This document shows positions 36,209-59,399 of a DNA stretch of 64,000 nucleotides, piece by piece. Within the stretch, counting starts at the first letter, position 1. Each line of letters opens with the position of its first letter. The notes under the pieces are model-generated. The model ran no database searches. It saw only the letters and a program-made list of their open reading frames with translations, and was not told where the DNA came from. A program made the position numbers and the translations under genes. Source of the stretch: Pseudobdellovibrionaceae bacterium (GTDB taxonomy: Bacteria > Bdellovibrionota > Bdellovibrionia > Bdellovibrionales > UBA1609). The stretch lies in assembly GCA_020635075.1 (NCBI GenBank), contig JACKAM010000001.1, positions 1,155,402 to 1,219,401 of the forward strand, given 5' to 3'.

Positions 36209-36418
36209 CTCACTCCAGCCCAATCCCTTATCGGCCTTTATTGCCCAAAGGATGAGGAACGAGGCCCTCTATAGCCTGGGAATTCATGGGTTTTTCCATG
36301 GATTTGACGCGCCATGTTTTTGATCTTGTGGAAAGCATCCCTTGACTGAGGTCGGGACCAGGGGTACACCTGGTCCACTCTTGCAATCTGAACGTTTGTT
36401 TCTCGCAAGTTTTCCTGG

Positions 36419-42506: not shown

Positions 42507-44147
42507 TTAGGGATGGTCAGGATTAAAGATCTGAAAGTCCCGACTGAGGAAGCTGCCAATGCTTCCTGTGCCCTGGTCGAAATCCTCATAATACAGGGTG
42601 CGGTGGGCGTAGAGGAGAACCGGCGGGGCCGATGGGTTGTCTTCCAAGACCTGAAAGAACATCAGCTTGATGACATTGCCGCCGGCTTCATGACGAAGGG
42701 GCAACATGGTTTCTGCTCCCGGATCGCCGGTTGGAAACAAGGGTACATTCTTTAAGGACACCCGATAGCAGCGTTGGCCATTTTGAGGGGGAGCTTCCTG
42801 AACACTCACATCGATGAGCGGTCCATGCTTCACCTCCCGGTCATTCATGAACACACCAGTATGGCGGATGGACTCTTCAAAGCTGGTTAAACCATCGGTG
42901 CCCATATCAGCCGTGGCATCACGTGGATCCAAGGGGTTAGAGCCAATGCGGAACTCAAGGCCATCAAAAATCAAATCCCCATCTCGATCAAAGTTGTAGG
43001 GGTCCGTACTCAATGAAAGATCGTCGCAATCACTTAAACCGTCCTGGTCCGAATCCAGGTAAGCCATACCTTCAATACAAGCGGCCGGACAGAACCCCCC
43101 GTTTTTCAGCCAAATCTTGTCAGAGCAATCCTTGTGAGTGCTATGAATCAAAGGATTCAGTCCCAGTGCAATCTCCTCGGCGTCAGGCAGGCCATCACTG
43201 TCTGAGTCGGTGGCCAGGGCTCCTGATGATGAGATGGCTCCATTCATGTTAACAGCCGCAAAATGACGTAGGACATATTTACGATTGGCAAATATCCCCA
43301 CCGCATTGTAATCAACCGGCCCGGTGTCATCCGCCACAATGGAGCGGCTGCCGAAGCCACCTGCGGCCTGGGCTGCCAACACCGCTCTGTGCATCATCAA
43401 ACCACCGTCTGGGTTGCCGTTGAAATTATCCATAAAATAAAAATAGACATTCACCCGACTGGCCTCAACAGGATCTTTTGGGTTGACCTTCCCCGTGTGG
43501 ATCAATTCGACTACCTTATCGCTCAGCTCCTTGGGTGTCACATCGGTGGGCGCACCATCAGTGACAATGACCACACTGTAGCGGCCTGAAGTATTGGTGG
43601 CCAAATCGTCTTCGATACAGCGCTTGGTGTTTTCTAAGATAGCTTTAAAGGGCGAGTTCCCCAGATGAGGATTACTCAGGGTGTCCATCTGGTTCATGGC
43701 CTTTTGTAGCTGATTGTAATCGGTGTCCACCCGAGACTTGAGAAACTGACAGGCGGTTCTCAGCTGAGGGAGCGTGGGCGGATTGGTGCTCGCATCCGGA
43801 AGAAAACCAAAAACATCCTGATGAAGAGCGCCTAATGTAATCGTGAAATTGTCGTCATCCTTGTATTCGTCGACAAGCTTGCGCAGGCCTGCGACCCGAC
43901 GAGTGGTGCCCGTCGTGGCGTTGTGGGGGTCCACACCTTCCATACTCTGAGACATGTCGGTAATAAAGATCACTCGATTCAGATTCTCAAGGTAATTGGG
44001 CGTTTGCGTACACACCAATCCGTCCTCGGATGCCGCGATAAAGGACTCCTTTTGGAAAAGCCTCACATCGGAGCAACCAAAGAGACCCGCCAGAGCCAAT
44101 GCTGGCAAGACCTGGATTATAATAATTGAGCACTTCTTTGGACTCAT
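42507..44147 (-). CDS. Lipoprotein with a VWA domain and thrombospondin-type-3-like Ca-binding repeats
   Basis: Lipobox 'LAGLFGC'. The MIDAS-like motif is 'VIFITDMSQSMEG', with 'VVIVTDGAPTD' downstream. Asp-rich repeats 'DSDSDGLPDAEE', 'DSDQDGLSDCDD' and 'DRDGDLIFDGLE' follow. Confidence 0.7.
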   Translation of the reverse strand: MSPKKCSIIIIQVLPALALAGLFGCSDVRLFQKESFIAASEDGLVCTQTPNYLENLNRVIFITDMSQSMEGVDPHNATTGTTRRVAGLRKLVDEYKDDDNFTITLGALHQDVFGFLPDASTNPPTLPQLRTACQFLKSRVDTDYNQLQKAMNQMDTLSNPHLGNSPFKAILENTKRCIEDDLATNTSGRYSVVIVTDGAPTDVTPKELSDKVVELIHTGKVNPKDPVEASRVNVYFYFMDNFNGNPDGGLMMHRAVLAAQAAGGFGSRSIVADDTGPVDYNAVGIFANRKYVLRHFAAVNMNGAISSSGALATDSDSDGLPDAEEIALGLNPLIHSTHKDCSDKIWLKNGGFCPAACIEGMAYLDSDQDGLSDCDDLSLSTDPYNFDRDGDLIFDGLEFRIGSNPLDPRDATADMGTDGLTSFEESIRHTGVFMNDREVKHGPLIDVSVQEAPPQNGQRCYRVSLKNVPLFPTGDPGAETMLPLRHEAGGNVIKLMFFQVLEDNPSAPPVLLYAHRTLYYEDFDQGTGSIGSFLSRDFQIFNPDHP

Positions 44148-45389: not shown

Positions 45390-46163
45390 TCAGACTCTTA
45401 AGTCTTCCTGGAGGCTGGCATCAAGCATTTTCCTGGCATAAGCCTCCGCTTGATCCGAATGAAGTTGGGAGAGGAGTTCCATAGAGATCAACACATTTTT
45501 GTTCTCATCCATGCTCACCCTAATTTTGCCTGTCTTTGCCCTATAGGGCGAAAAGTAAAGATGCTTCTCCAAACGCATGACAAAATCCGGGGATGGCGAC
45601 CGATCCCCCAGCGACACATGAAAGTCCAACGGATGAATCATTCCCTTAGCTAGTTTTTTGAGTCCTAGGCGACTGATGGTGCGTGTGGGTACAAAGTAAG
45701 ACTCCCCCTCAGAATTCTGCAGTTGACAGCGGAACAGGCCAACTCTCTGCAGACGACCCTTAGAACCACCGATCTGTATCCAATCCCCCTCTCCCAGGCC
45801 GGCCGTCACCAACATGGCCACAGCCGGCATGAGTCCGCGACTGAATTCCACCAGTAGGACGATGAGCATGGCAACCAATGCCACGAGACCCGCCAATTCG
45901 AAAAGCACACTCCTACGGGCCATGAAAAAGGTGGCGTTAATGACAAAAAACAAGGGAAAGATGAGGTTAAAAACCACGCGCAGGGTGGGCACGTGAAGTC
46001 GTCGCGACCACCCCGTCCTTTCCAGGTGACGCAAGAGGGCCTGTACAGTGAAGAACACGGCAAAGCCCACAGCAATAATCCAAAACAGAGCGGCCAATCC
46101 ATACCAAGAAAACCAGGCCAGTGAACGATCAATCTCTTCGAGCAGATAGGATTTATCTTCCAA
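45390..46163 (-). CDS. MscS-family mechanosensitive channel-like protein
   Basis: Three TM segments are followed by 'GEGDWIQIGGSKGRLQRVGLFRCQLQNSEGESYFVPTRTIS'. This matches the MscS beta-domain pattern (G..v.v.g..G.V..i.l..t.l...dg....iPN). Confidence 0.7.
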   Translation of the reverse strand: MEDKSYLLEEIDRSLAWFSWYGLAALFWIIAVGFAVFFTVQALLRHLERTGWSRRLHVPTLRVVFNLIFPLFFVINATFFMARRSVLFELAGLVALVAMLIVLLVEFSRGLMPAVAMLVTAGLGEGDWIQIGGSKGRLQRVGLFRCQLQNSEGESYFVPTRTISRLGLKKLAKGMIHPLDFHVSLGDRSPSPDFVMRLEKHLYFSPYRAKTGKIRVSMDENKNVLISMELLSQLHSDQAEAYARKMLDASLQEDLRV

Positions 46164-46171
46164 TTTTCCCC

Positions 46172-49100
46172 CTATACCCAGTGGGTGTCCTGAAAGTGAG
46201 TACCAATGGAAAAAGTCAAATCTGGAGGAATCTGATATATGCGCCCATCCCGATCACAACGTGCCACCAAGCCAGTAGCCTCAAGGGAATTCAACTCACG
46301 GCGCAAGATGCGGACATCCCAGATCAGGGATTCCCGTAATTGACCAATTGTCCTTGGGCCATAGCGATAGAGCTCCTTGAGGAGAATCAAAGAGCCTTCA
46401 CTAAAGGCGTCCAAAAATCCAAAGCCTTCAACCATGGATTTATGTAGCGAAATTTGCAATCGATCGCCGGAAACTCCCTCCAGGCTATGGACCCACAGAG
46501 CCAAGGCCAAGCGCAGGTTGCCATGGCTGCGACTCTTAAGAGTGCTAAAGAACAAATGTTCATCCCCAGTCTTCCAAATTTGCTTAATCCGATCCAGGCC
46601 GAGGGAGCTGGCAAATTCAAGCTCCAAGCCACTTAATTTGTGCCGATCATAAATCACTCGTCTCAAGCATTCACCATCTAAAGGTTTGAGTCGAACCACT
46701 TCGGTGAAGACCGAACGCAAATCAAAGGCATCTTGAAAGAGTCCGTAATTGGGGTCACGAATCGTGGCGATCCAACTCACATTCTCAGGGGCCCGGACAA
46801 CAAGATCGCAAAATCGCTCCATGCCCTCATAGCCGGAGGGCTGAAGCCAGTTATCCAGATTGTCGATCATCACAACCATGTTTTGCCGGCGTAACTCACG
46901 CAGAAGGTTGTTGATTGAGGCGTCAGTTCCCAGCTCCGCCCCCAGCGCAGGGAGAATTCGGGTTGTGGTGTGATAAACATCCTGCTCTAAGCGGACGATC
47001 CGCGCATTAGGGAATTCCAACTGACAGATGTTCAGCAGTGAGGTTCGCCCCATTCCGGGCTCCGCCGTCACCAAGAGTCTGCGTCCAATGTTTTGTTGTC
47101 GCCCTTGCCCCAAGACCACATCTAAGGCCTCCCGGTGGGCCGAAAAGAATCTCCGATCCTGTAGAGGGTCCAAAGAAAAAAGCCTCTGGTAAAGCCGCGG
47201 CAACTCTTCTCTGGTTTGGGCGAGATAATGATCTTCGAGATAACTTCTCACAACTTGGGCATCCAGACGACCCTCATGAATCCTCTCCCTTAAGGCGGTG
47301 GCTGCTTGATGGCCCTCCAGTACCTTAAGACTCCTTCGCAGATCTTTGCCCACCCGCCTTGTTTTTTCCCCGATCACCCTTTTGCGGACTTCCCACTTTT
47401 GCGCTAGCCACCCCTGAACCCCGCGAATCCGCGTGGTGGCCGAATCAACAACGCCAGCACGATGGAGGCCTTTCCAAAGTTCCGTATTGGCCTCACCTAT
47501 AAACTGGTGAACATCCTCCTCGGTTTGAGACAGTTGCTTCAGAAAGTCGTTCTCCAAATCCGAAATCTTATCAATGGCCCTGGCCACCGCACCTTCAGCA
47601 TTGGATTTGGCCTCCGCAAACTCTTCGGCTGCACTTCCGTGTGTTGACTCCAAGGAGTATTCAAGAACATTAAGAGCGTCCTCACACTCCACTGCCAAGG
47701 ACTCATTAAATCCAAAGACCCTTTCCATTCGTGACTCAATGAGAGGCAGGACTTCAATCAAAACCGACTCGTGGAAGTTGTTGTCCAGATTGATACTGAT
47801 GACATCCAATTCCTGAGGCCTATAGACATCTCGACCAATGGAATCCTCAGTCAAAATCTCGAGCTCTCGCTGATGGACCGGCAGGCGCTCACGGATGGCA
47901 TGGGTCAAATCGCGATTGAGAAGTCGATTGCTACCGAGGGAAAGAGATCTGAATCTCAGCTTCCGCAAGCAGTCCGCTCCCACGGCGCGGATATTGTTTT
48001 CCATAGCTTTGACATCAACCTGAGTTTCGGGAGTGATTGTGGCAAGACGTTTTTTGACTTCAGCCAAATGTCCCTTTAATTCCCCACAGACGTGATGGAC
48101 CATTTCCCGTGCACCTTCCAATGGTTGTAGACATCGGCCCTCGATAATCTCGTCCACAACTTTCTGGATATAGCCCGTCATCAGGTGAGCTCGTAGAGTA
48201 TTATTAACAAAGAGAAACTTTTCTTCCCAAAGTTTCACGTCTGCTTCGGCACCGTGGAGATAACGACTGACCTCTGGTTCAGCCAGGGAAAACCTCACCT
48301 CATCACTTCTCAAAAATGGACTGCCCACATTATTTAGTGACCAGCTCAACCCCCGACCTGCCTTTGAAAGCATAAAACGAAAATCCGACTGCGCCAGGTC
48401 CAGGCTCCCCTTTAACAACTCCTGACATTTTGTCCAGATCTCCTTCTCCTCCACATTGCCTGCTACCAAGCCACGACGAACCTCCTCGGTGATCAGATAT
48501 ACCGCACGAATCCAATTGTTAGAAAAGGTCCAACTAAACTGAGACAATGCCGGACACAGGTGATAGCGGACAATGGATTGGAGGGGAACCTCACGGCGCA
48601 GAGGTCGATGCTTAGGGTTCAAAAACAGTTTGAACCGCAATCCCATCTTTTTGATTCGAATGGACCAACTGTCTCCCGTCTGCCAGCGAAAATGCTCCTC
48701 TCGGAAGGGAACCGTCACTACCGAGGACTGTTGCAGGAGCAAACCGTCTTGCTTCTGATAGAGAGATAATACCGCTTTTGCCCTTTGTCTCAAACGAAAG
48801 GTCTGCTCCTCCATGGCATCCAAAATCTCATCATTAAATACTCCTTTGCTGCCAATATGACTCTGAAGATCTTCGATCACGCCAGAAACCAAAGGCTGAA
48901 AACGCGCTCCCATTAGGTCCTCAAAACCCTGTTCCAATTGCGCGAACAAATCCTTTGCTCTTGTGCGAACCTCCTCATCATGCACATCCCTTAAATCGAG
49001 GGAAGGGTGCAAATCTGAGACTTCAATTGGGGCCAGCTCTGTCCTTTCCCCGTGGGCAGATTGATCCTCAGTGGCGACCCGGGGTATCGTCGCCTGAAGG

Positions 49101-50365
49101 GCTTGTCTCAGCGTCACCGGGCCCACTAACAGATTCAATGCCACCATGCCCATTCCAACCAATTCAATGGGGCCTGCCAGAGCGGGCAACTCATGGGCCG
49201 CCACTCCGACGAGGCCCAGAGTCACCCCCGCCTGAGGCAGATAGGCCAACCATGAACTTTCTGTAACTTTGGAATTCTCGCCACCCAACTTCGATCCCCA
49301 CCGGGATGAAAAATAGTAGGAAATTGCCCGCAGAGCAAACAGCAGCAGAGCCAAGAGCCCCACACTTTTAACCCCACTCAAATCCAAGGCGGCTCCGGCA
49401 TTGGTAAAAAACACGATAAATACAGGAAGGCTGATTTTTTCCAAAGGTCGATGAAGCTCACCCTCCCACTTGGAAAAGTTCCCCACCACCATGCCTGCAA
49501 TAATAAACACTAAAAGTAATTCCAGCTTGAAGGCAGCACTCAGCTCGGCCACACCAAGAATGGTTGCTGCCACAAACAGCAGCATCTCTCGGCGAACAAA
49601 ATGCAAATAAAGCATCAGCAGTCCACCCAATACTCCGCCAGCAAGCAGAGATAGGCCGAGTTCAATCAAAAGATGCACCACAACCGAGGCATGACTCGCG
49701 GTTTGACCTCCATCATCATCAGTAAGCACTCCCGCCATCGCCAATACAAAGGCCAACACCAACACCACTATCAAATCTTTGGCTACTGCCATGCCCAAGA
49801 CCAAATCGGTCATTCGCCCCTTGGACTGAGCCTCGTTGGTAACCGCCAAAGCAATTGCGGGAGACGTGCCAATGGAGAGAGCCGCAAAGATCATTGCCAA
49901 GGCCAAATCCGCCATAGCACTGCCAGTGGCAATGATTTGAAACTGCCGCTGTACAAGGAAAAAGCCACCGCCCACCAGTAATGCCAGAGTGATGATCTTA
50001 AAGCCAATGGTCGCCAGCAGAGTCTTAGAAACCTGACGCAAAGATTCAAAACGCAACTCCAACCCAGCATTCAAGGCAATGAGCCCCAAAGCCAGGGTGC
50101 TAAACATCTTAATATCCTCAACGACTGATGTACTGAGGACATTCATCACTCCAGGGCCCAAAATGACACCTGCCAAAATGTAACCCGTCACCTTCGGCAA
50201 TTTAAACCGGCCGGCAATTTCAGAGGCCGAATAGGCCGCCAGGAGCACAAAGCCAACACTGGCCAAAAACAAGGGTACCCCTCCCGTTTGCGCCACTCCC
50301 AAGGTCTTCAAGGCAATCATTGCCGCGAGAAGAATTCCAAGTACCACGACTTGTCTAAACACCAA
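46172..50365 (-). CDS. Fusion protein: CPA2-type cation/proton antiporter + ~670-aa unknown helical region + P-loop NTPase (ATPase_2/AAA_16-like) + winged helix
   Basis: A single 1397-codon ORF. The N-terminus 'KLPKVTGYILAGVILGP' plus about 12 hydrophobic segments (~aa 1-420) is Na_H_Exchanger-like. The C-terminal 303 aa carries 'LLVTAEPGMGRTSLLN' (Walker A, R for K), 'MVVMIDNLDNW' (Walker B) and 'GPRTIGQLRESL...LNSLEATGLVARCDRDGRIYQI' (wHTH-like). Confidence 0.8.
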   Translation of the reverse strand: MVFRQVVVLGILLAAMIALKTLGVAQTGGVPLFLASVGFVLLAAYSASEIAGRFKLPKVTGYILAGVILGPGVMNVLSTSVVEDIKMFSTLALGLIALNAGLELRFESLRQVSKTLLATIGFKIITLALLVGGGFFLVQRQFQIIATGSAMADLALAMIFAALSIGTSPAIALAVTNEAQSKGRMTDLVLGMAVAKDLIVVLVLAFVLAMAGVLTDDDGGQTASHASVVVHLLIELGLSLLAGGVLGGLLMLYLHFVRREMLLFVAATILGVAELSAAFKLELLLVFIIAGMVVGNFSKWEGELHRPLEKISLPVFIVFFTNAGAALDLSGVKSVGLLALLLFALRAISYYFSSRWGSKLGGENSKVTESSWLAYLPQAGVTLGLVGVAAHELPALAGPIELVGMGMVALNLLVGPVTLRQALQATIPRVATEDQSAHGERTELAPIEVSDLHPSLDLRDVHDEEVRTRAKDLFAQLEQGFEDLMGARFQPLVSGVIEDLQSHIGSKGVFNDEILDAMEEQTFRLRQRAKAVLSLYQKQDGLLLQQSSVVTVPFREEHFRWQTGDSWSIRIKKMGLRFKLFLNPKHRPLRREVPLQSIVRYHLCPALSQFSWTFSNNWIRAVYLITEEVRRGLVAGNVEEKEIWTKCQELLKGSLDLAQSDFRFMLSKAGRGLSWSLNNVGSPFLRSDEVRFSLAEPEVSRYLHGAEADVKLWEEKFLFVNNTLRAHLMTGYIQKVVDEIIEGRCLQPLEGAREMVHHVCGELKGHLAEVKKRLATITPETQVDVKAMENNIRAVGADCLRKLRFRSLSLGSNRLLNRDLTHAIRERLPVHQRELEILTEDSIGRDVYRPQELDVISINLDNNFHESVLIEVLPLIESRMERVFGFNESLAVECEDALNVLEYSLESTHGSAAEEFAEAKSNAEGAVARAIDKISDLENDFLKQLSQTEEDVHQFIGEANTELWKGLHRAGVVDSATTRIRGVQGWLAQKWEVRKRVIGEKTRRVGKDLRRSLKVLEGHQAATALRERIHEGRLDAQVVRSYLEDHYLAQTREELPRLYQRLFSLDPLQDRRFFSAHREALDVVLGQGRQQNIGRRLLVTAEPGMGRTSLLNICQLEFPNARIVRLEQDVYHTTTRILPALGAELGTDASINNLLRELRRQNMVVMIDNLDNWLQPSGYEGMERFCDLVVRAPENVSWIATIRDPNYGLFQDAFDLRSVFTEVVRLKPLDGECLRRVIYDRHKLSGLELEFASSLGLDRIKQIWKTGDEHLFFSTLKSRSHGNLRLALALWVHSLEGVSGDRLQISLHKSMVEGFGFLDAFSEGSLILLKELYRYGPRTIGQLRESLIWDVRILRRELNSLEATGLVARCDRDGRIYQIPPDLTFSIGTHFQDTHWV

Positions 50366-50371
50366 TTACTC

Positions 50372-51817
50372 CTAACGCCGCCAACACTCCGGATAAAACA
50401 CGGCAAACAAAACAAATATCTCCAGACGTCCCGCAATCATCAAAAAACTTAAGGCCATCTTGCCCAAGGCAGGGATAAACTCATAGTTCTGCAGTGGCCC
50501 GACACCGGAGAGTCCGGGACCTACACTCGATAAGCAAGCCACAACCGAACTCATGGCCGTCATCAGGTCCAATCCCAAAAAAACCATTAAGATTGACCCA
50601 AACGCAAAGAGCAGAAAGTAAGCGCAAAAAAACAATAAAATGCCATTAACCACATAGCCCGGAATTGTTGCTCCCCCTAGGCGGAACGAAAAAACTGCTT
50701 GAGGATGAAGCACTGAGCGAAGTTCGTGAAGAACTGCCCGATACATGACAAAGACCCGGGAGGCCTTCAGTCCACCAGCTGTTGATCCGGCACTTGCCCC
50801 AATAAACATACACACAAACAGCAGGAACCTAGCCAAATTTGGGTAGGCATCGAAGTCTTCGGTCATCAATCCAGTGGTCGTAGTAACAGCGACAGTCTGA
50901 AACAAACTGTAACGGAGAGACTCAAAAAAACCGCCATGGCGGTCTAAGGTCAAAAGGGTGATCACTCCACCCACCAGCAGATTGATCCCAAGGAAAAATC
51001 GCAATTCGTAATTACGCCAAAAGGATCTTAGCTGTCCTTTGATGAGACCATAGTAAAGACCAAAGTTAAGACCTCCCAGCAGCATGAACACAATAGAGAT
51101 CCAATCAATAACCGGACTTCTAAAAGCCCCAATACTTGCCCCACGCGTGGAAAACCCACCCGTCGATAAAATCGAAAAGGCATGACAAAAACTCTCAAAA
51201 AGATTCATTCCAGCCAAATGAAGAAGGACAAGACAAATACTGGTTAACCCGGCGTAAATCCACCATAACCGCAAAGCTGTTTGCCGAATACGTGGCTTCA
51301 AATCCTCTGACACGGGGCCTGGAGCCTCCGTGCGAAACAACTGTTTGGCCCCGACTCCCATTTGAGGAAATACGGCCACAAACAGCACGACAATCCCCAT
51401 GCCGCCAATCCAGTGAGACAAACACCTCCACAGATTTGTCGACCGACTCAAGCCATCCACATCTGCCACAACCGTCGCGCCAGTCGTAGTAAAGCCAGAG
51501 ACTGCCTCAAAGATGGAGCTGGAAAGGGAGGGGATGGCGCCCTCCAAATAAAAAGGCAATCCACCAAAAAAGCCCAGGGCAATCCAAATAAAAGCCACTA
51601 CGCCAAAGGCATCTTTGCGGTGGATCTCCGCCTTTGCCCTGCCTCCTACCTTTCTCAACACCAAAGCCACGATCACAACCAGCACTGCGGTCATACCGTA
51701 GGCAAAAACACCATCACCATTGTTGTCAATGACGGCCACTGCAAGAGGGGCCACCAAAAACAAAGCCAATAGCATCAACAAAGAAGACACATATAAACAA
51801 ACGACTCTTAGATTCAA
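50372..51817 (-). CDS. trkH: Trk-type K+ uptake membrane subunit TrkH
   Basis: 481 aa, polytopic. Selectivity-filter-like repeats 'SGFTTTGATV', 'LSTGGFS', 'VTTTTGLMT' and 'STAGGLK' are present. TTG start. It lies 10 nt after trkA. Confidence 0.9.
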   Translation of the reverse strand: MNLRVVCLYVSSLLMLLALFLVAPLAVAVIDNNGDGVFAYGMTAVLVVIVALVLRKVGGRAKAEIHRKDAFGVVAFIWIALGFFGGLPFYLEGAIPSLSSSIFEAVSGFTTTGATVVADVDGLSRSTNLWRCLSHWIGGMGIVVLFVAVFPQMGVGAKQLFRTEAPGPVSEDLKPRIRQTALRLWWIYAGLTSICLVLLHLAGMNLFESFCHAFSILSTGGFSTRGASIGAFRSPVIDWISIVFMLLGGLNFGLYYGLIKGQLRSFWRNYELRFFLGINLLVGGVITLLTLDRHGGFFESLRYSLFQTVAVTTTTGLMTEDFDAYPNLARFLLFVCMFIGASAGSTAGGLKASRVFVMYRAVLHELRSVLHPQAVFSFRLGGATIPGYVVNGILLFFCAYFLLFAFGSILMVFLGLDLMTAMSSVVACLSSVGPGLSGVGPLQNYEFIPALGKMALSFLMIAGRLEIFVLFAVFYPECWRR

Positions 51818-51827
51818 CTTCTCACTC

Positions 51828-53174
51828 CTAAGATCCTAGAACCCGTTTTAGAGTGCGACTGAGTTCATTGATCTTTGCGGAATCCACCGCAAATAGCAAA
51901 TGACTGTCGGGAGCCAACCGCAATGCTGGTTCTAATGGCGCGAATTCTTCGTGGCGAGAAACAGCAAGAAGGTGGCAGTCAGAGGGCCAACTCAAATCTC
52001 CAAGACGAACCTCTCCTCCATGCCAACTTTCCGGAATATGGACCTCGGCAATCTCGTGATGGCACGAAGGCAGAGATTTGCGTTGTACAATCCAGTCGGG
52101 GGTGGTCAGCATGTGGATGTGTTTACCCACCAACTCATGGGAACTCGCGGTCCCGGTGACGCCGAGGCGATCGTACACCTGGGCATAGCCGGGGCGGTGA
52201 ACCAGAGCAAATGTAGCAGCAACACCCAACTCCTTTCCCAATAGAGAACTCATCAAATTCACCTCGTCGGCACGAGTCACAGCAAGCAGACAATTGGCTG
52301 CCTCCACATGCTCATCGTGAAGCATGGAAATATTGGTTCCATCGCCATGAACAACGGTGACGCTTTCCAACTCTTCAGAAATTCGCTGGCAGCGGGAGCG
52401 ATTAACATCGATGACCATCATCTTGCCACATTCGGCCTGAAGACCCTGGGCCAATTGAAATCCAACATCCCCACCGCCAATGATCACAGTCCGCTTGCCA
52501 CCAAAGCGGTCACTCAGTCGGCGTAAGGCCACGCCAAAGGATTCGGCAGACCCGCACACGAGAAGCCTGTCGCCTTCATAAACCCGGCTGATTTCTTCGA
52601 CCCGGCGAAATGTGTTTTCCCGCAGGACACCGGCAATTCTGGTTTGCTTCCCAAGCTCGATCTCACTCGGAGGTTTATCCAAGTGGCGAAATCCATCCGC
52701 CACTTCAGCCACCCCGATGTTGATAGAATTTAAGGCGAAATTGCCCACGAACTCGCAGTCCAGCTGACGAACTCGACGAATCAGCTCGCTGCTCACCAGG
52801 CGAGAAGCACACAAAATTGCTGAGACACCCAGGACGTTTCGGTCTACTCCACGGGGGTTGAGATAAAAAGCGGGGGCATCAACACGCGCCACAGATTTTT
52901 TAACTGCCACCTCGCGTGCCAAAGAGGCACTCACCATATTGACCTCATCAATGCCTGTCACGGACACAAACAAATCACAATTCTCGATCCTCGCTTTCTT
53001 GAGTACCGGCCGGAAGGTGGCATTCCCACAGAGAGTCATGACATCCAGATTTTCCTCAACTCGCTTTAGAGCCTCGGGTGATTGGTCAATCACTGTCACT
53101 TCATTGCCTGCTGCACTGAAGTTAGCCGCTAAAAAAGTTCCCACATCACCTGCACCGACAACCACGACTCTCAT
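51828..53174 (-). CDS. trkA: Trk system NAD-binding subunit TrkA (tandem RCK)
   Basis: Two Rossmann starts, 'MRVVVVGAGDVGTFLA' and 'VIIGGGDVGFQLAQ', are each followed by RCK_C-like segments. 448 aa is typical of TrkA. Confidence 0.9.
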   Translation of the reverse strand: MRVVVVGAGDVGTFLAANFSAAGNEVTVIDQSPEALKRVEENLDVMTLCGNATFRPVLKKARIENCDLFVSVTGIDEVNMVSASLAREVAVKKSVARVDAPAFYLNPRGVDRNVLGVSAILCASRLVSSELIRRVRQLDCEFVGNFALNSINIGVAEVADGFRHLDKPPSEIELGKQTRIAGVLRENTFRRVEEISRVYEGDRLLVCGSAESFGVALRRLSDRFGGKRTVIIGGGDVGFQLAQGLQAECGKMMVIDVNRSRCQRISEELESVTVVHGDGTNISMLHDEHVEAANCLLAVTRADEVNLMSSLLGKELGVAATFALVHRPGYAQVYDRLGVTGTASSHELVGKHIHMLTTPDWIVQRKSLPSCHHEIAEVHIPESWHGGEVRLGDLSWPSDCHLLAVSRHEEFAPLEPALRLAPDSHLLFAVDSAKINELSRTLKRVLGS

Positions 53175-54529
53175 CAGGAATCCCCTTCCGTTTGAGCAGG
53201 TAAATCAATCTTTACCTGGATTTCGCCGGCATCCAAAAGCAGGCGCCTCAACTCCACATAGCCCAAAAGCTGATTGAGGAGCACTCCTCCTAAGACTGCC
53301 GACAAAACGAGATTCCCCCCCGCGGGAAATCGCTCCAAAAAACTCAAGCCGATGGCAATTGCCATCAAATCCTGACCCATCAGGCCAGCACCTAAATTGG
53401 GCCCCCTCTCCCCATGGGTTCCCGCCAGTTGCCGAAAGATTGAAGGCGTGACTTGCTTCATCGCCCAATAGCGAATGGCGAAGTAGGCCGATGGGAACAC
53501 CCATTCTAGCCCACTTACAGGTTCCCAGTGGGCTCCGGCAAATATCAACAACATCACAAAAATTGGTTCGGCAATCCGATCAAGTGCCGGTCGAATATCC
53601 ACCGCATATTGAGAGGCCAGCCCCAGTGTTGCGCCAAAAATAAAATTCACAAACAAAGGGGAAATCCCAAGTGCTGTGCCCACACCACTGGCAAACACCA
53701 CACCACCGAAGGACGCCAGGTAGAGGCGATCCTCTTGAGATTCCCGTCCGATAAACAAAGAAAACAAAAATCCACAGGACACTCCGGCGGCAATTGCTGT
53801 CAATGCCCACTCTGAAACCGTAATTCCCATGCTGCCCGCAGTTTCCACTGCGCGGGAAGAGGAAAGGGCAAATCCAAAGACCAACACCGCCACCATCTGG
53901 AAGACTCGGGCCAGTAACTGCAACCTCTCCGTCACCGGTCCACTGTTGCGATAGAGGCTTTGGGCATTGTTCAGCAAGATGGTCGAGGCCGAAGCCGCCC
54001 CGGCCCCTAAGGTCAGGGCAATCCACAAATGGGTATCGCAAAATTCAAATCTGCTGACCTCCTGCCATGGCCATACCCACTCGAAGCTCCACAAAACCAC
54101 GCCATGGCCCACCTCACTTGAGAGAATGAACAAAGTCATTGCACCCATCAGGACGGAAACCACCAAAAGGACGACCAAAGAAGCTGAAACCCCGGCCCAG
54201 AAAACTTCCCGCGACTTCAGGGTGTCGCGAATATGCAATCCTAGAACAAAACCCACCAAGCCAATCAATAGACTTAAAAAAGGCTGAAATTGCGACAATG
54301 TTTCGACATTGATGAGATGAAATCCTACTTTGGGGCCAATAACCGCACCCAAAAGAATGTACAATAATCCCGAGACCGAGATCAGGTTGGACTTGGTTTT
54401 TTTAAGTGTCGCACTAATGAGAAAACTAAATACAACCAAGAGGAGCAGGGCCACTGTGGTGTTGACCATCGCGCTGAAAATCCTTTCGCAGAGCCAGCCA
54501 AAATTTACGCTTAATTGTTTCAAGCCCAA
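53174..54529 (-). CDS. Cation/proton antiporter-like membrane protein (Na_H_Exchanger family-like)
   Basis: A polytopic protein (10+ hydrophobic segments) beginning 'LISVSGLLYILLGAVIGPKVGFHL'. Its stop overlaps the trkA start (ATGA). The true start may be the ATG at 54469. Confidence 0.65.
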   Translation of the reverse strand: MGLKQLSVNFGWLCERIFSAMVNTTVALLLLVVFSFLISATLKKTKSNLISVSGLLYILLGAVIGPKVGFHLINVETLSQFQPFLSLLIGLVGFVLGLHIRDTLKSREVFWAGVSASLVVLLVVSVLMGAMTLFILSSEVGHGVVLWSFEWVWPWQEVSRFEFCDTHLWIALTLGAGAASASTILLNNAQSLYRNSGPVTERLQLLARVFQMVAVLVFGFALSSSRAVETAGSMGITVSEWALTAIAAGVSCGFLFSLFIGRESQEDRLYLASFGGVVFASGVGTALGISPLFVNFIFGATLGLASQYAVDIRPALDRIAEPIFVMLLIFAGAHWEPVSGLEWVFPSAYFAIRYWAMKQVTPSIFRQLAGTHGERGPNLGAGLMGQDLMAIAIGLSFLERFPAGGNLVLSAVLGGVLLNQLLGYVELRRLLLDAGEIQVKIDLPAQTEGDS

Positions 54530-54717
54530 AGACTGGTGTCAAACCAGGCCAGTCCATGAACATCATCCTAACTCTTTGTTTTCTATAAATTATGCATCGT
54601 CCCAATAGGCTTCTTTGTGGAAGCCCCTTGAGAAGCAATATTCTTTACAAAGTTCGCCTATCTCTGGCTAATCCCCAGCTTTGAACCTAGATTCTTCCGG
54701 TCTCAGGAGGTCGAAGG

Positions 54718-56163
54718 GTGACAGTGAGGATGATGACGAGAATGCTGGCAGTTGTGATTACAACGTTGGCGATTCAAGCAGAAGCAACTCAAGAACAAAC
54801 AACAGATTCCGCAAAGCAATGGACAGCAAAAGAATTCTTGAGCCAATTCCTGGCTGCTGACGAGGATCTTGTTCAGGCTCAAAGCCGGCTTGAGGTGAGC
54901 CGTCAAATCTGGTTGGGAGCCGATGACCTCTATACCAGCCGACTGTCAGTCTCGCCAACAGCCAACTGGAAGGATCAGACGTTCTCCTCTAGCGCCGGCA
55001 AATCTACCTACGATGATCAAAGCTCCGAGGTCACGGGACGCCTGGTGCAATCTTTCCCCTCAGGAACTGAGCTGGAATTTAAAGCCCAGGGCTACATGGA
55101 AAGAACCAACCCCACCCTCGGTGGCATTGATCGACAATACACTCTCACCCTCAATCAACCACTTTGGCAGAATGCCTTCGGCCGTCAATGGCGTTTGGAG
55201 AGGGATCGGGCCCTCGATTCCTATGAAGGCGAACAGGCTTCTATTGCTGCATCCAAATTAGTCGCTTGCGAGAAGGGATTAAATCTTTACTTTACGGCCT
55301 ACGCAGCTCAAGAGGCGGAGCGAGACCATGCCCTCATTTTGAATTCAGCAGAAAAGGCTCTTCAGATCGCTAAATCCGCTTACCAGAAAAGACTCGTCAG
55401 ACCCATTGACTACATGGCGGCACAAGCTGACTTTTTGCGCATTCAAGGACTGAAGCTCCAAGCTGACCAGGAGCTCAGTCAGTCTCTTACGGTTCTCGCA
55501 TCCTACAATGAAAAGGCCTTGTCCGCCTTGGTGCTGACGGACCCGAGTTCCCTCTTACAGGCTCTTCCCTCTGAGGACCCACAGTGGTCCAGTCACCCCC
55601 AAGCGCTTGCCAGCCTCAAGGAAGTTACCGCCGGGGAAAAGGCCATCGCCAAAGCCGAAGATCTGGCCAAGTCCCAACTGAACCTTCTACTACAGGCCGG
55701 ACAGATGGAAGGTCGAGTGGAATCCGGAGCTGACCTATTGGATTACGACGAAAACTTCTACAAAGTTGGCCTCCAGTGGACCATCCCCCTTGGAGACACC
55801 AACCTCTCAGCCGAGATCGAAAGGAAGCGAGCTGAAAAGAGGGCAGCACTCGCCCGCCAGGCAGCTGCCGAACGCATGTGGAAAGAGGACCTTCAACAAC
55901 AGCGGATCAATCGCGCCACCAAATCCGAGCAACTGAATCTAAGTGAGCGCAAAATCAAACTTTATGATCAGCAACTCAAGGAAGCCTTTCGCTTGCTGCG
56001 CGTCGGCAAACTGGAGTTCAATGATTTTATTCGCTATCAGGACACTCTTCTCAACGAGCGCATCGCCAGACATCGACTGCGTTCGCAGATGTGGGAAGCC
56101 TGGTCCCGATGGCAATTCCTGAGTCACCGGACTCAGGCCTTGTGTTTGGAAGGTGGGGTATGA
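54718..56163 (+). CDS. TolC-like outer membrane efflux factor (OEP family)
   Basis: GTG start, signal 'MLAVVITTLAIQAEA'. Two repeats of long helical/coiled segments with Ala/Gln/Leu-rich heptads are typical of OEP. It overlaps the RND gene start by 4 nt. Confidence 0.8.
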   Translation: MTVRMMTRMLAVVITTLAIQAEATQEQTTDSAKQWTAKEFLSQFLAADEDLVQAQSRLEVSRQIWLGADDLYTSRLSVSPTANWKDQTFSSSAGKSTYDDQSSEVTGRLVQSFPSGTELEFKAQGYMERTNPTLGGIDRQYTLTLNQPLWQNAFGRQWRLERDRALDSYEGEQASIAASKLVACEKGLNLYFTAYAAQEAERDHALILNSAEKALQIAKSAYQKRLVRPIDYMAAQADFLRIQGLKLQADQELSQSLTVLASYNEKALSALVLTDPSSLLQALPSEDPQWSSHPQALASLKEVTAGEKAIAKAEDLAKSQLNLLLQAGQMEGRVESGADLLDYDENFYKVGLQWTIPLGDTNLSAEIERKRAEKRAALARQAAAERMWKEDLQQQRINRATKSEQLNLSERKIKLYDQQLKEAFRLLRVGKLEFNDFIRYQDTLLNERIARHRLRSQMWEAWSRWQFLSHRTQALCLEGGV

Positions 56164-59100
56164 GCCGGATAATTAAGTACTTTATTGACCGTTCCTTTGT
56201 TGTGAATTTGATCGCAGGCTTTATCTGTCTAGCTGGGGCCATCACTCTCACATCCATGAAGAGGGACCTCATACCCCCCTTTGAGTTCCAGATGATCCAA
56301 GCCCACATCTCACTGCCGGGAGCAACACCCGAGGAAATGGAGAAATTTGTCGTCTTCCCATTGGAGGAGTCTCTCAAAGGCTTGCCCGGCCTGGAAAAAG
56401 TGGAGTCAAAAAGCTCTCCAGGTAGCGCAGAAATTAATCTTTTTTATGATGCCAGCTTCAATAAAATGACTGAAGCCACGGAAACCGTTCGCTCACGCAT
56501 CGAAGCCCAAAGAGTGCGCCTGCCTCAGTCCATCCGTCACATTAAAGTCGAACGGGTCAGGGTTAACGAGGTCTTCCTGTTTGTTCTCGCCTTGGAGAAT
56601 TTTGAAGAGGACAACACCGACCATCGGCTCTACATCAAGAAACTAGAGGAAAAACTCGGACAAATCCGTGGCGTGGTAAGAACTGAGGTTCATGCCCGGG
56701 CCAGGGACGTTTACATCGAGTTTTTTCCCGAAAGACTCAAAAGTTATGATATTTCGGCGACTCAGGCCCGGCGCGCAGTGCTTGAGTCACTGAGACTCAC
56801 CCCGATTGGCCAGGTCACCGACAACGAATCCCGCTTTTCCGTGGAACTGGCCAAGGCTGACACTTCGCTTGAGGACCTCAAAAACCTCCCCATCACCTCC
56901 AACCTGCGTGGCGATGCCGTTACTTTGCGACAAATTGCCAAAGTCCATTACCGACTTGCAGATCGGGATCGTATTGTCCAATACAATGGTGAGCCCACCG
57001 TCACCCTACGAATTCTAAAGGACACTCATTCGGATACCATCGACCTCAAGGGGCAGGTTCTTAGGGTTGTGGCCGATTACAACAAAACTCTGCCAACTCC
57101 CCTAGTAGCCACCGTCTTTGCTGATGGGCCGGCCTTTATTGAAAAGCAGATCCAGGTCCTCAACCGCAATGGTCTCCTCGGCCTGGCTTTGGTCATTTTG
57201 ATTTTGGTTCTCTTGCTCAACTGGCGCACCTCAATCATGACGGTATTGGGACTTCCAGTTGCCTACCTGGGCACCCTAGTGGTTCTTCAGCAAATGGGCG
57301 TGGCGATTGATTTGATTTCCATTATCGGCATGATCTTGGTCATCGGAATTCTTGTTGATGACGCCATCATCGTCAGCGAACGCTATGTGGAGAATTTGCA
57401 GGAGGGTCTTCCTCCTCGCGAGGCGGCTTACCGTGCGGCAAGGGATCTGCTTGTTCCGGTGACAGGAACTGTTCTCACCACTATCGTGGCCTTTGCACCC
57501 ATGCTCCTCATCAAAAGTGAGATCTCAACAGTACTGTTTGCCGTCCCCCTGGTGATCATTGTCTCTCTGGTGTTCAGTTGGATGGAAAGCTTTTTTATTC
57601 TGCCCAATCACCTCGCCCACTTCGTCAAGTCTGCGCCCAAGCAATCAGAGGACTCTTGGTTCAATCGTATTCGCCGGGGTTACGAGTCTCTTTTGCGCTG
57701 GACCCTTAAAGGGCGCTACCCCATCATTCTCGTCCTCCTTGTTCTGTTTGGTGCCAGTGGTTACTGGGCGGCAAAGAAATTACGCCATGACTTTAACCTG
57801 CAGATCAATCTTGAGCGGGTCACAGTTTTTGCGGCCCTCAATCAAAGCACCTCCCTGGATGACTCAATGAAGCAACTGGCTCCGCTTCAGGAAACACTAC
57901 TCAAACTTCCCAAGAGCGAGGTCGAGACAGTCTATTCGCGAATCGGTAGTGTGTGGATGGACGGTCGCATGCAGGAGGGCTACCGATTTGCACGCTTCGA
58001 CCTCTATCTGGACAAAAACACCGACTACCCGACTCGACTGAGAGACAAGGTTCAGGAACACACCGAAAAGCTCCTGGCTCCGTTCAAAGAGTCAGGACAG
58101 TTTGAAAAGATCTACTCAAAGGCGAGCAGGGAAAACCTAGACAAAGACAAAAGCTCAATGGTCACCGTGCAGATTCGCGGCGGCGAAGAGGTGGACTTCC
58201 ATGAAATTGAAAAGTCTCTCGCTGCAGCGGCCCTAAAGGTGGAAGGAATCAAGGAAGTGGTAGAAGATCCCGATCGCTACCGCACGTCATGGCAATTTAT
58301 GGCTGATCCCAAATCCCTTCTCCAGCACAACCTGAGCCCGACAGAACTTGCCAACCAGCTGCGCGGCCTGTTTGTCCCTGATGAACTGATTGAAACGCGC
58401 ATTTCGGGGGAACGGGTGTACATTTACACCCAAAGCCTCCGCGACAGACCGCCAAGATTTGAGGAGTTGAGCCATTTGTCCGTGGTCACACCTCGTGGCA
58501 TTGATGTTCCCTTGCGTTTTTTGGGACAGTGGAAACAAAAGACGACCCTCAATAGAATCCAACATTTGGATGGTCGAAGAGAGCTTAAGGTGGATTTTAA
58601 GTTTGATCCGCAAAAGACAAATTCCACGACTGCAAAGGGCAACATCAGGTCTGCGATTGAATCGGTGCAACAGACGTTCCCCACCTATGATATTTCTGTC
58701 GTCGATACCAACGAGGAGGAAGCCAAAAATCGTGCCTGGGCTCTTAAGGTTGCAGCTGTTGCTGTGAGTGCCGTACTATTGATCCTGGCTTTGATATTGG
58801 GCAGTCTGACTCAACCCTTGTTGGTGGGCCTGCCAATTCCCTTTGGCTTGATTGGCATCATATGGGCTCTCTATCTGCACGATTTGCCTTTGGGTCTGAT
58901 GGCGATAATTGGTTTGGTAGGGACTGTGGGAGTCTCAGTGAATGACTCACTCATAATGGTCAACCACATGAATCACCTGGCGGCAAAAGCCGGAAAGACC
59001 TTAGACCGAGAGCATATCATCAACGGCGCTTCGTCTCGGTTTCGCGCGATTCTTCTCACCACCATCACCACTCTCGGTGGCGTCTTCCCCATGGCCTACT

Positions 59101-59399
59101 CCTTTGGCGGAGAATCTGGATTTACCCAACCCCTGGCTTTTTCTATGGGATGGGGTTTGAGCTTTTCCACCCTCCTCACCTTGTTCATTCTTCCAGCACT
59201 CCTAGAGATTCGTGGGGATGTGCTCAAACTATTGGATAGAATTTGGAATTGGCAAAAAGGGAGATCCGCAGTAGCAAAGACAATTCCCTCAATGAGTGAG
59301 GACCTCACACAACCGTCTCTCATCGAGTCGCCTGAACTGGTTGCAATGAAAGAACACAACTGGGAAGACCCCGCCAACAACCAACATCCAGATCTCTAG
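56160..59399 (+). CDS. RND-family efflux transporter (AcrB/AcrD/AcrF-type inner membrane pump)
   Basis: Start trimmed to the ATG at 56160 (MSRIIKYFIDRSFVVNLIAGFICLAG). There are 12 TM segments in a 1+5/1+5 layout with two large periplasmic loops. Conserved 'IGILVDDAIIVSE' and 'VGVSVNDSLIMVNH' are present. Confidence 0.9.
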   Translation: MSRIIKYFIDRSFVVNLIAGFICLAGAITLTSMKRDLIPPFEFQMIQAHISLPGATPEEMEKFVVFPLEESLKGLPGLEKVESKSSPGSAEINLFYDASFNKMTEATETVRSRIEAQRVRLPQSIRHIKVERVRVNEVFLFVLALENFEEDNTDHRLYIKKLEEKLGQIRGVVRTEVHARARDVYIEFFPERLKSYDISATQARRAVLESLRLTPIGQVTDNESRFSVELAKADTSLEDLKNLPITSNLRGDAVTLRQIAKVHYRLADRDRIVQYNGEPTVTLRILKDTHSDTIDLKGQVLRVVADYNKTLPTPLVATVFADGPAFIEKQIQVLNRNGLLGLALVILILVLLLNWRTSIMTVLGLPVAYLGTLVVLQQMGVAIDLISIIGMILVIGILVDDAIIVSERYVENLQEGLPPREAAYRAARDLLVPVTGTVLTTIVAFAPMLLIKSEISTVLFAVPLVIIVSLVFSWMESFFILPNHLAHFVKSAPKQSEDSWFNRIRRGYESLLRWTLKGRYPIILVLLVLFGASGYWAAKKLRHDFNLQINLERVTVFAALNQSTSLDDSMKQLAPLQETLLKLPKSEVETVYSRIGSVWMDGRMQEGYRFARFDLYLDKNTDYPTRLRDKVQEHTEKLLAPFKESGQFEKIYSKASRENLDKDKSSMVTVQIRGGEEVDFHEIEKSLAAAALKVEGIKEVVEDPDRYRTSWQFMADPKSLLQHNLSPTELANQLRGLFVPDELIETRISGERVYIYTQSLRDRPPRFEELSHLSVVTPRGIDVPLRFLGQWKQKTTLNRIQHLDGRRELKVDFKFDPQKTNSTTAKGNIRSAIESVQQTFPTYDISVVDTNEEEAKNRAWALKVAAVAVSAVLLILALILGSLTQPLLVGLPIPFGLIGIIWALYLHDLPLGLMAIIGLVGTVGVSVNDSLIMVNHMNHLAAKAGKTLDREHIINGASSRFRAILLTTITTLGGVFPMAYSFGGESGFTQPLAFSMGWGLSFSTLLTLFILPALLEIRGDVLKLLDRIWNWQKGRSAVAKTIPSMSEDLTQPSLIESPELVAMKEHNWEDPANNQHPDL

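Follow-up and report, generated by a model that had tools for sequence, protein, structure and literature searches.

The window analysed here, 64,000 nucleotides of the genome of a Pseudobdellovibrionaceae bacterium (contig JACKAM010000001.1, positions 1,155,402 to 1,219,401 of the forward strand), encodes on its minus strand a 1397-residue protein in which an N-terminal CPA2-type exchanger domain is continued by a long helical arm, a P-loop NTPase module resembling both Orc1/Cdc6 and STAND proteins, and a C-terminal winged helix (Table 1). The fusion is a real single polypeptide under purifying selection. On balance we think it probable, if far from secure, that the protein is a CPA2 exchanger in which the Orc/STAND-like tail places K+ and osmotic ion fluxes under the control of nucleotide state.

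The gene begins with a TTG codon and its translation contains no stop. This start is plausible because the N-termini of the homologues P0002 (MRKVIILAIL...) and P0013 (MRRVVVLVVL...) align with that of the fusion from residue 1-4. The five alternative frames of the same stretch (G+C 50.8%) contain 33-78 stops each, and the open frame of 1397 residues is therefore not a product of chance. The closest relative, P0001 (81% amino acid identity), is a partial protein from a Bdellovibrionales metagenome-assembled genome belonging to a separate assembly (GCA_020435105.1, contig L026), and its gene aligns in frame with residues 246-1289 of the fusion, spanning both the exchanger/helical and the helical/NTPase junctions. 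Differences between the two genes at codon positions 1/2/3 number 18/10/97 in the CPA2 part, 139/78/358 in the middle region and 36/11/142 in the NTPase part, with 269 synonymous versus 147 non-synonymous codon changes in the middle region, so that all three parts must be translated and under purifying selection. The original prediction, made from the letters of the window alone, had described a single uninterrupted frame of this length while pointing to a missed stop or frameshift between transporter and soluble part as a hazard; the frame stands, and no such defect is seen against the independent contig. The explanation that two or three genes (exchanger, helical protein and ATPase) were merged by an assembly or annotation artefact, for which the separate helical-plus-ATPase proteins of other phyla might be cited, has to contend with this in-frame, synonymous-dominated contig, with 97 full-length fused representatives of 1250-1557 residues and with 14 genome loci carrying fused genes; it is exceedingly improbable and can be regarded as ruled out for practical purposes.

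The membrane domain scores well above the Pfam cutoff for PF00999 (89.8 bits against 26.2), in keeping with the exchanger originally proposed for the N-terminus, and scores 60.5 bits against NCBIfam TIGR00932 (the CPA2 '2a37' subfamily), under that model's cutoff of 238.3; a PDB sequence search with the domain returned no match. It contains KLPKVTGYILAGVILGP at residues 55-71, aligns to E. coli KefC residues 22-386, and is the best-conserved part of the family, with 36 invariant columns among 40 fused sequences. Asp197, which corresponds by alignment to KefC D156 and, we presume, to EcNhaA D164, is invariant in these 40 members and occupies position 7 of the CPA motif. Its invariance, together with the high conservation of the domain, indicates that the exchanger is still strongly constrained. 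Position 7 of the CPA motif holds the essential ion-binding Asp; at position 6 electrogenic clades have Asp, and other clades Asn or Gln (PMC6181914). In the fusion clade position 6 is instead an invariant lysine (Lys196), and we found no mention of Lys at this position in the published phylogenetic analysis (PMC6181914). The clade also has G-T-S-P as its motif in transmembrane helix 4 (TM4) versus L-S-S-T in Kef-type proteins. The invariant Arg346 was considered as the basic residue of CPA-motif position 8, an assignment that is probable and is not claimed here, the hidden Markov model (HMM) alignment to KefC being off by a few residues. By Pfam the fusion and six fused homologues have no TrkA_N/RCK domain, and the same search detects TrkA_N at E 6e-45 in the adjacent TrkA.

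The tail and the arm were modelled with AlphaFold on an alignment of 12 sequences. In the model residues ~1055-1397 form a compact alpha/beta domain followed by a helical lid and the winged helix (predicted local distance difference test, pLDDT, 70-93 here). The top Foldseek matches in the PDB are archaeal Cdc6/Orc1 structures (2qby_A, E 5.9e-7, with 2qby_B, 2v1u, 1w5t and 1fnn; E 6e-7 to 7e-6), aligned at a probability of 1.00 over ~400 columns and all three subdomains at 14-16% sequence identity; ORC subunits, RuvB, ClpX and plant NLR resistosomes follow. A PDB sequence search with the tail gave no match. The family profile matches RuvB in three segments (the P-loop, an 'lrsvF' segment, and the lid with the winged helix) and ORC4 in a P-loop-local match only (E about 6e-4). 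The winged helix has a weak Pfam match to HVO_A0114 and is included in the Cdc6/Orc1-like structural match. When 31 family members were scanned one by one with Pfam (E<0.01), AAA_16 was matched in 29, AAA_22 in 22 and nSTAND1 in 18 (best E 2e-11), and NACHT was also among the matches, while no Cdc6/ORC Pfam family appeared among the matches of the window protein or the family members. The window protein itself scores 12.8-17.7 bits against AAA_16 (cutoff 32.6) and 19.9-21.9 bits against AAA_22 (cutoff 27); the homologue P0003 exceeds the AAA_16 cutoff (36.5 versus 32.6 bits). From models and profiles the module appears Orc1/Cdc6-STAND-like, and we file it in neither family. These matches bear out the Orc/Cdc6-like P-loop NTPase and winged helix proposed from the letters alone. 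The 303-residue end module then delimited (46175-47083) does correspond to residues 1095-1397, but the nucleotide-binding module begins ~40 residues earlier, at LPRLYQRLFSLDPLQDRRFF (residues 1055-1074). The protein ends ~12 residues past the winged helix and has no TPR, WD40 or LRR repeat sensor.

Conservation of the nucleotide-binding site was read from 92 aligned family members. At the position of the Walker A lysine 47 of them have Arg, 42 have Lys and 3 have another residue, and a quick neighbour-joining tree of the module, which gives a rough estimate, requires at least 19 Lys/Arg switches; the Arg that had been singled out at first is indeed present, yet it belongs to a family-wide alternation and is not peculiar to the window gene. 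The Walker A and Walker B motifs lie exactly where they had been placed (GMGRTS, residues 1104-1109, 47039-47056; VVMIDNLD, residues 1164-1171, 46853-46876). The rest of the pocket varies little: the Walker A glycines are ~100% conserved, the Ser/Thr following the lysine position is retained, and D1168 of Walker B is kept in 98%. In the lid G1282 is invariant and N1283 is present in 82%, and W1198 and R1241 are likewise (nearly) invariant. Conservation in the winged helix is confined to structural residues (L1329, R1334, G1336, L1361, G1365, L1366) and does not include the recognition helix. The window protein departs from both the canonical Walker A GxxGxGK[ST] and the Walker B acidic pair, having GMGRTS and IDNLD, the second acidic residue (Asp in 74% of members) being Asn. 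This combination of Arg in Walker A with Asp-Asn in Walker B is found in only 2 of the 92 members and suggests that it may bind nucleotide with little or no hydrolysis. Because Lys and Arg interchange while the glycines, the Ser/Thr and the Walker B Asp are otherwise conserved, a nucleotide-binding switch fits better than a motor, and the motifs suggest that the tail acts as such a switch rather than as a hydrolysis-driven machine.

Between exchanger and NTPase lies the arm, for which the original prediction could name no family. Its middle ~600 residues went unmatched in searches of Pfam, NCBIfam, PADLOC and PDB sequences, and a Foldseek search of the PDB with the modelled arm gave nothing significant (best E 0.45). 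Modelled alone, the middle region reaches a pLDDT of 78.4 and a predicted template modelling score (pTM) of 0.62, against 74.7 and 0.41 for the whole tail; the modelled helices are up to 84 residues long and the linker at residues ~972-1021 is of low confidence. Profile matches of the arm to apolipoproteins and BAR domains (E 1e-5 to 5e-4) were set aside as compositional, reflecting high-bias helical repeats with no significant Foldseek match, and an internal duplication, suggested by a repeated pattern of beta-hairpin and two helices in the model, found no support at the level of sequence (hhalign probability 2-3%). The arm is homologous to the N-terminal part of relatives that have no exchanger, such as P0003.

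An exhaustive HMMER search with the tail against representatives of clusters at 50% identity found 1541 at E<=1e-3, 669 at E<=1e-10 and 87 at E<=1e-30; a single-sequence word-index search with the tail had given only 3 relatives. A family-type CPA2 domain is present in 103 of the best 150 representatives, and full-length fusions make up 97 of the 150; at least 97 distinct clusters, from Myxococcota and Bdellovibrionota, thus share the architecture, and Pfam Na_H_Exchanger was confirmed in the fused P0002, P0005, P0012, P0039 and P0134. Where the source names these proteins it calls them 'cation:proton antiporter' or 'Kef-type K+ transport system membrane component KefB'. Free-standing versions also occur: relatives of ~930-1300 residues keep the helical region and the NTPase and have no exchanger (P0003, P0006, P0011 and several loci), and such forms are found in Rhodothermales, Salinivenus and Gemmatimonadota (L016, L018-L022, L024). 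Since these relatives exist, the helical arm with its NTPase is the older, free-standing protein, which became fused to a 'Lys-Asp' CPA2 clade in Myxococcota and Bdellovibrionota. A search of the literature for the fusion architecture, for an MscS-NTPase pair or for a STAND protein joined to an antiporter found nothing relevant, the coverage of journals being incomplete and absence there being no proof; with no TrkA_N/RCK domain and no such paper found, the tail does not fall into an already characterised regulatory family fused to CPA2 transporters. One exchanger-less locus, L016 (4321-9149), comes from Roseithermus sacchariphilus MEBiC09517 (CP030158), which has been cultured and completely sequenced, and consists of a 426-residue MscS homologue followed by a helical-arm NTPase of ~1200-1295 residues. 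The TTG start listed for that NTPase lies within the MscS gene, ~340 nt before its end, which makes a later start probable. A 333-residue open reading frame (ORF) upstream of it was discarded as wrong-frame, the true upstream gene being the MscS homologue.

The genetic setting of the fusion is that of ion transport. Gene order was compared across 21 loci obtained in a genome scan with the pattern G[SM]GRTSLLN[LV], which samples only Arg-type members, the locus ORFs being searched with the window proteins. In the window the five genes of the operon (degenerate CPA2 paralog, TrkA, TrkH, fusion, MscS-like) are separated by a 1-nt overlap and then by 10, 6 and 8 nt. The same five-gene order is found in L009, L012, L014, L017 and L023, all Myxococcota; a three-gene order (membrane protein, fusion, MscS-like) in L004, L005, L006, L008 and L015, also all Myxococcota; and TrkH, fusion and MscS-like in L001 (Bdellovibrionales). 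The MscS-like partner in the window scores 26.6 bits against PF00924 (cutoff 20.2), and the partners in other loci 43-78 bits. Wherever a fused locus extends downstream of the fusion, the next gene is of the MscS family, usually with a 4-nt overlap; in the exchanger-less L016, L018-L022 and L024 such a gene lies immediately upstream, and in L002 and L003 immediately downstream, so that the NTPase gene adjoins an MscS-family gene in every locus with readable flanks. This adjacency in fused and exchanger-less loci alike identifies the helical-arm NTPase and the MscS-like channel as the invariant core, to which one lineage added the exchanger, the paralog and Trk.

The first gene of the operon encodes a protein with no Pfam match that is nonetheless related to the exchanger domain of the fusion; its true start is probably an ATG near 54469. 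At the site of the fusion's Lys-Asp it has Gln-Met, and all eight upstream-gene orthologues checked (L004-L006, L008, L009, L015, L017, L023) have Gln at the Asp position. With Gln in place of the ion-binding Asp the paralog cannot bind the ion in the canonical way. In 10 loci its gene is found upstream of either the fusion or trkA, and in the three-gene version its translation is coupled to that of the fusion. Since CPA exchangers function as dimers, the degenerate paralog may be a non-transporting partner of the exchanger domain in a heterodimer. A second pair, without a tail, occurs in L012 (10491-13675, minus strand), where a 622-residue relative of the degenerate paralog overlaps a 439-residue CPA2 protein with Ala-Asp at positions 6-7, which suggests that pairs of dead paralog and exchanger recur independently of the NTPase tail.

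Table 1. Position, strand and supporting evidence of the fusion gene, its parts and the neighbouring operon genes in the window.
Feature	Positions	Strand	Basis
Whole fusion gene	46172..50365	-	Uninterrupted 1397-residue ORF; CPA2 exchanger, helical scaffold, Orc1/Cdc6-STAND-like NTPase, winged helix
CPA2 (Na_H_Exchanger) transmembrane domain, residues 43-423	49097..50239	-	Pfam PF00999, E 2.1e-25
Invariant Lys196-Asp197, TM5-equivalent helix, CPA-motif positions 6-7	49775..49780	-	40 fused members; aligns to KefC Gln155-Asp156
Predicted cytoplasmic helical scaffold, residues ~464-1021	47303..48976	-	AlphaFold: long antiparallel helices, two small beta-hairpins
Nucleotide-binding domain and lid, residues ~1055-1300, including the pre-P-loop motif LPRLYQRLFSLDPLQDRRFF	46466..47203	-	Foldseek and Pfam matches across the family
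Walker A variant AEPGMGRTS, residues 1101-1109, Arg1107 for Lys	47039..47065	-	Translation
Walker B VVMIDNLD, residues 1164-1171	46853..46876	-	Family consensus hhhhDDLE.W
Lid motif SHGNLRLA, residues 1280-1287, equivalent to sensor 2 or GxP motif	46505..46528	-	Aligned to RuvB 'SRGTPRIA'
C-terminal winged helix, residues ~1316-1385	46211..46420	-	Profile matches to ArsR/SmtB/MarR/NmtR winged helices, E 3e-5 to 1e-3
MscS-family channel, 257 residues, starts 8 nt past the fusion stop	45390..46163	-	Pfam MS_channel_2nd, E 6.6e-6
TrkH, K+ uptake channel subunit, ends 6 nt before the fusion	50372..51817	-	Pfam TrkH, E 1e-60; same place in L001, L009, L012, L014, L017, L023
TrkA, two TrkA_N/RCK domains and TrkA_C	51828..53174	-	Pfam TrkA_N, E 6e-45; syntenic in L009, L012, L014, L017, L023
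Degenerate CPA2 paralog, 451 residues, first operon gene	53174..54529	-	Family CPA2 HMM, E 1e-11; BLASTP to fused CPA2, E 1e-4
Promoter-like site TTGACA-17-AACAAT (with TG), upstream of the operon	54514..54542	-	Consensus match only

The tail is expected to be cytoplasmic, since the transmembrane domain of the fusion ends where that of KefC does and the C-terminal domain of KefC is cytoplasmic. There it would take the place of an RCK/KTN regulator, sensing nucleotide state (ATP versus ADP or empty) and using the helical arm to set how active the exchanger is; it would probably also contact the partner MscS-like channel. Of the two functions first suggested from the letters, a nucleotide-gated transporter and a membrane-tethered sensor or regulator, we therefore favour the former. 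K+/H+ exchange and the release of solutes through the channel would in this way be tied to the energy or osmotic state of the cell alongside Trk K+ uptake, a single operon joining K+ uptake by Trk, K+/H+ exchange and emergency solute release. A more specific form of this proposal, which we put forward tentatively and as one that may well fail, is that an NLR/Orc-like switch physically couples, by a long helical lever, the heterodimer of CPA2 exchanger and dead paralog to the MscS-type channel; the system would then be an unrecognised class of ion-flux complex in which a STAND-type switch serves housekeeping osmotic and K+ control, not immunity or replication, and the Lys/Arg alternation at Walker A would mark sensing that is independent of hydrolysis.

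Several points weigh against nucleotide-state control of the exchanger. Nucleotide binding, transport and contact with the MscS-like protein are all things that we infer, and the adjacency of two genes is a sign of a functional link between them but not of physical contact. The fusion protein has no C-terminal sensor domain, a usual feature of STAND-type switches. Replacement of the Walker A lysine by Arg destroys the function of many P-loop proteins, and the Arg could mean a dead site in half of the family. The invariant Lys beside the ion-binding Asp, for which no precedent was found, raises the possibility that the membrane domain may not be a canonical exchanger. Finally, the models, built on a shallow alignment (12 sequences; pTM 0.41 for the whole tail), do not address how arm, NTPase and membrane domain pack.

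Three other explanations of the architecture were weighed, all of them unlikely to differing degrees. The first makes the tail and arm an assembly or quality-control factor, a scaffold or chaperone by which exchanger dimer and MscS-like heptamer would be assembled or anchored as a single complex, with no regulation of their activity. Strict adjacency and translational coupling with the MscS-like gene and the degenerate CPA2 paralog would suit such a role, as would the long helical arms, which are typical of scaffolds, and the tolerance of Lys or Arg at Walker A, which fits a non-catalytic function; a pure scaffold would, however, have no use for a complete nucleotide-binding, lid and winged-helix module, and conservation of the whole pocket (Gly, Ser/Thr, Walker B Asp, lid motif and the invariant R1241) implies that nucleotide state matters. 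We consider it improbable, though the least so of the three.

A little less probable again is a membrane-tethered transcription regulator, comparable to ToxR or CadC, in which exchanger and NTPase sense and the winged helix binds DNA, controlling the ion-transport operon. The C-terminal domain does have the sequence pattern of the DNA-binding winged helices of ArsR, SmtB and MarR, and Cdc6/Orc1, the top structural match, binds DNA by its winged helix. Against this, the winged helix of STAND and AAA+ proteins normally packs on the nucleotide-binding domain and does not read DNA, the conservation described above covers structural residues only and leaves out the recognition helix, and a protein that is fused to a transporter and has an obligate MscS partner would be expected to act at the membrane. 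An imperfect inverted repeat upstream of the operon promoter (54600-54633) counts in favour of DNA binding, although its arms are only 79% complementary.

Least probable of the three, and in our judgement distinctly unlikely, is a conflict or abortive-infection system, in which the STAND-type NTPase would sense an invader and trigger ion flux through exchanger and MscS-like channel, collapsing membrane gradients. Bacterial STAND and NLR-related proteins are defence switches with N-terminal effectors, the family has STAND-like motifs with nSTAND1 and NACHT Pfam matches, and NLR resistosomes are among the structural matches. However, neither the tail nor the MscS-like protein nor the degenerate paralog has a match in PADLOC-DB 2.0 (P0003 matches only mad8, at E 0.005), the protein has no C-terminal repeat sensor, and synteny with the housekeeping Trk genes is stable in Myxococcota and Bdellovibrionota. 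The membrane domain is the best-conserved part, unlike fast-evolving defence genes, and the genes nearby in the window serve efflux and the envelope and form no defence island.

The surroundings of the operon may be described briefly. Promoter-like sites in the region are not more numerous than expected from shuffled sequence. The inverted repeat, with 14-nt arms and a 6-nt spacer, is situated in a divergent intergenic region shared with an outer-membrane efflux gene, ~60 nt upstream of the promoter-like site, and could be an operator. The divergent genes (54718-59399, plus strand) encode an outer-membrane efflux protein (OEP, E 4e-21) and a 1102-residue RND pump (ACR_tran, E 9e-154); no periplasmic adaptor gene is visible between them, and the listed ORFs overlap by ~70 nt. 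Farther away on the minus strand, 34439-36223 encodes a 594-residue protein with an FHA-like N-terminus (…FVIGR…SRSHC…GSKNGT…), judged from the translation, followed by a long disordered stretch rich in Pro, Ser, Glu and Lys and by several hydrophobic helices. Also on the minus strand, 42507-44147 encodes a putative lipoprotein or secreted protein of 546 residues with Asp-rich, Ca-binding-like repeats and a weak match to bacterial thrombospondin type-3 repeats (E 0.0013, under the cutoff).

To our knowledge RCK/KTN domains account for nearly all that is understood of how bacterial K+/H+ exchangers are regulated, and membrane tension is regarded as essentially what gates MscS channels. If nucleotide-state control of the exchanger is correct, the fusion represents a third type of regulator, an AAA+/STAND-like nucleotide switch carried on a helical arm of ~550 residues, and its family would link an exchanger, an MscS-type channel and Trk uptake genetically in one operon. 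The architecture points to an undescribed control of bacterial ion flow, the function of which we infer throughout; present annotation ('cation:proton antiporter', 'KefB') ignores two thirds of the protein. The repeated Lys/Arg swaps at Walker A, with the rest of the pocket kept, amount to a natural experiment at that lysine. The family is abundant in Myxococcota and Bdellovibrionota, predatory or social bacteria, and the free-standing version in the cultured R. sacchariphilus makes the hypothesis directly testable.

What is known here is the type of a regulated CPA2 exchanger; what is new is the regulatory module and the set of partners, which are without precedent. The closest comparison is with KefC and KefB, which are gated by glutathione and regulated through KTN/RCK domains. 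As in these proteins, a CPA2 membrane domain, alignable over its whole length and with the ion-binding Asp kept, is followed after the last transmembrane helix by a regulatory domain in the cytoplasm, in a setting of K+ homeostasis. Unlike them, the fusion has no KTN/RCK domain and carries instead a tail of ~960 residues made up of helical arm and Orc/STAND-like NTPase; its partner genes encode an MscS-like channel and a degenerate CPA2 paralog in place of KefF or KefG; and it differs in its invariant Lys-Asp versus Gln-Asp in KefC and in its TM4 G-T-S-P versus L-S-S-T (PMC6181914).

For the tail, archaeal Orc1/Cdc6 proteins share the fold of AAA+ base, lid and winged helix, and the S.GN.R.A of the fusion lid is sensor-2-like; the fusion module differs in being tethered to the membrane, in often having Arg for the Walker A lysine, in lying in an ion-transport operon with no replication genes, and in motifs that are nearer to STAND and AAA_16. 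With STAND NTPases (AAA_16, nSTAND1, NB-ARC/NACHT, MalT-type) the family shares the order of nucleotide-binding, helical and winged-helix domains. We take its motifs to be STAND-like as well: the pre-P-loop of P0003 (RFLVGREAEM) presumably corresponds to hhGRExE, the Walker B consensus hhhhDDLE.W to the NB-ARC LLVLDDVW, and the lid 'GN[LP]R.AL' to the GxP motif. Unlike STAND proteins, the fusion has no C-terminal repeat sensor, its N-terminal 'effector' consists of a transporter and a helical arm, and the window protein falls under every Pfam STAND cutoff.

The TrkA/RCK gating rings and KATP channels (SUR/Kir6) offer a functional analogy only, in that a K+ pathway is under the control of a nucleotide-binding module in the cytoplasm; the folds are unrelated (AAA+/STAND-like versus Rossmann-type RCK or ABC nucleotide-binding domain), and TrkA and TrkH themselves are encoded in the fusion operon. 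MscS-type channels are tied to ligand sensing and K+ physiology in MscK/KefA and in bCNG with its cNMP-binding domain, which likewise combine such a channel with a cytoplasmic ligand sensor; in the fusion system the presumed sensor is instead a separate or exchanger-fused NTPase beside a minimal MscS homologue of 250-300 residues.

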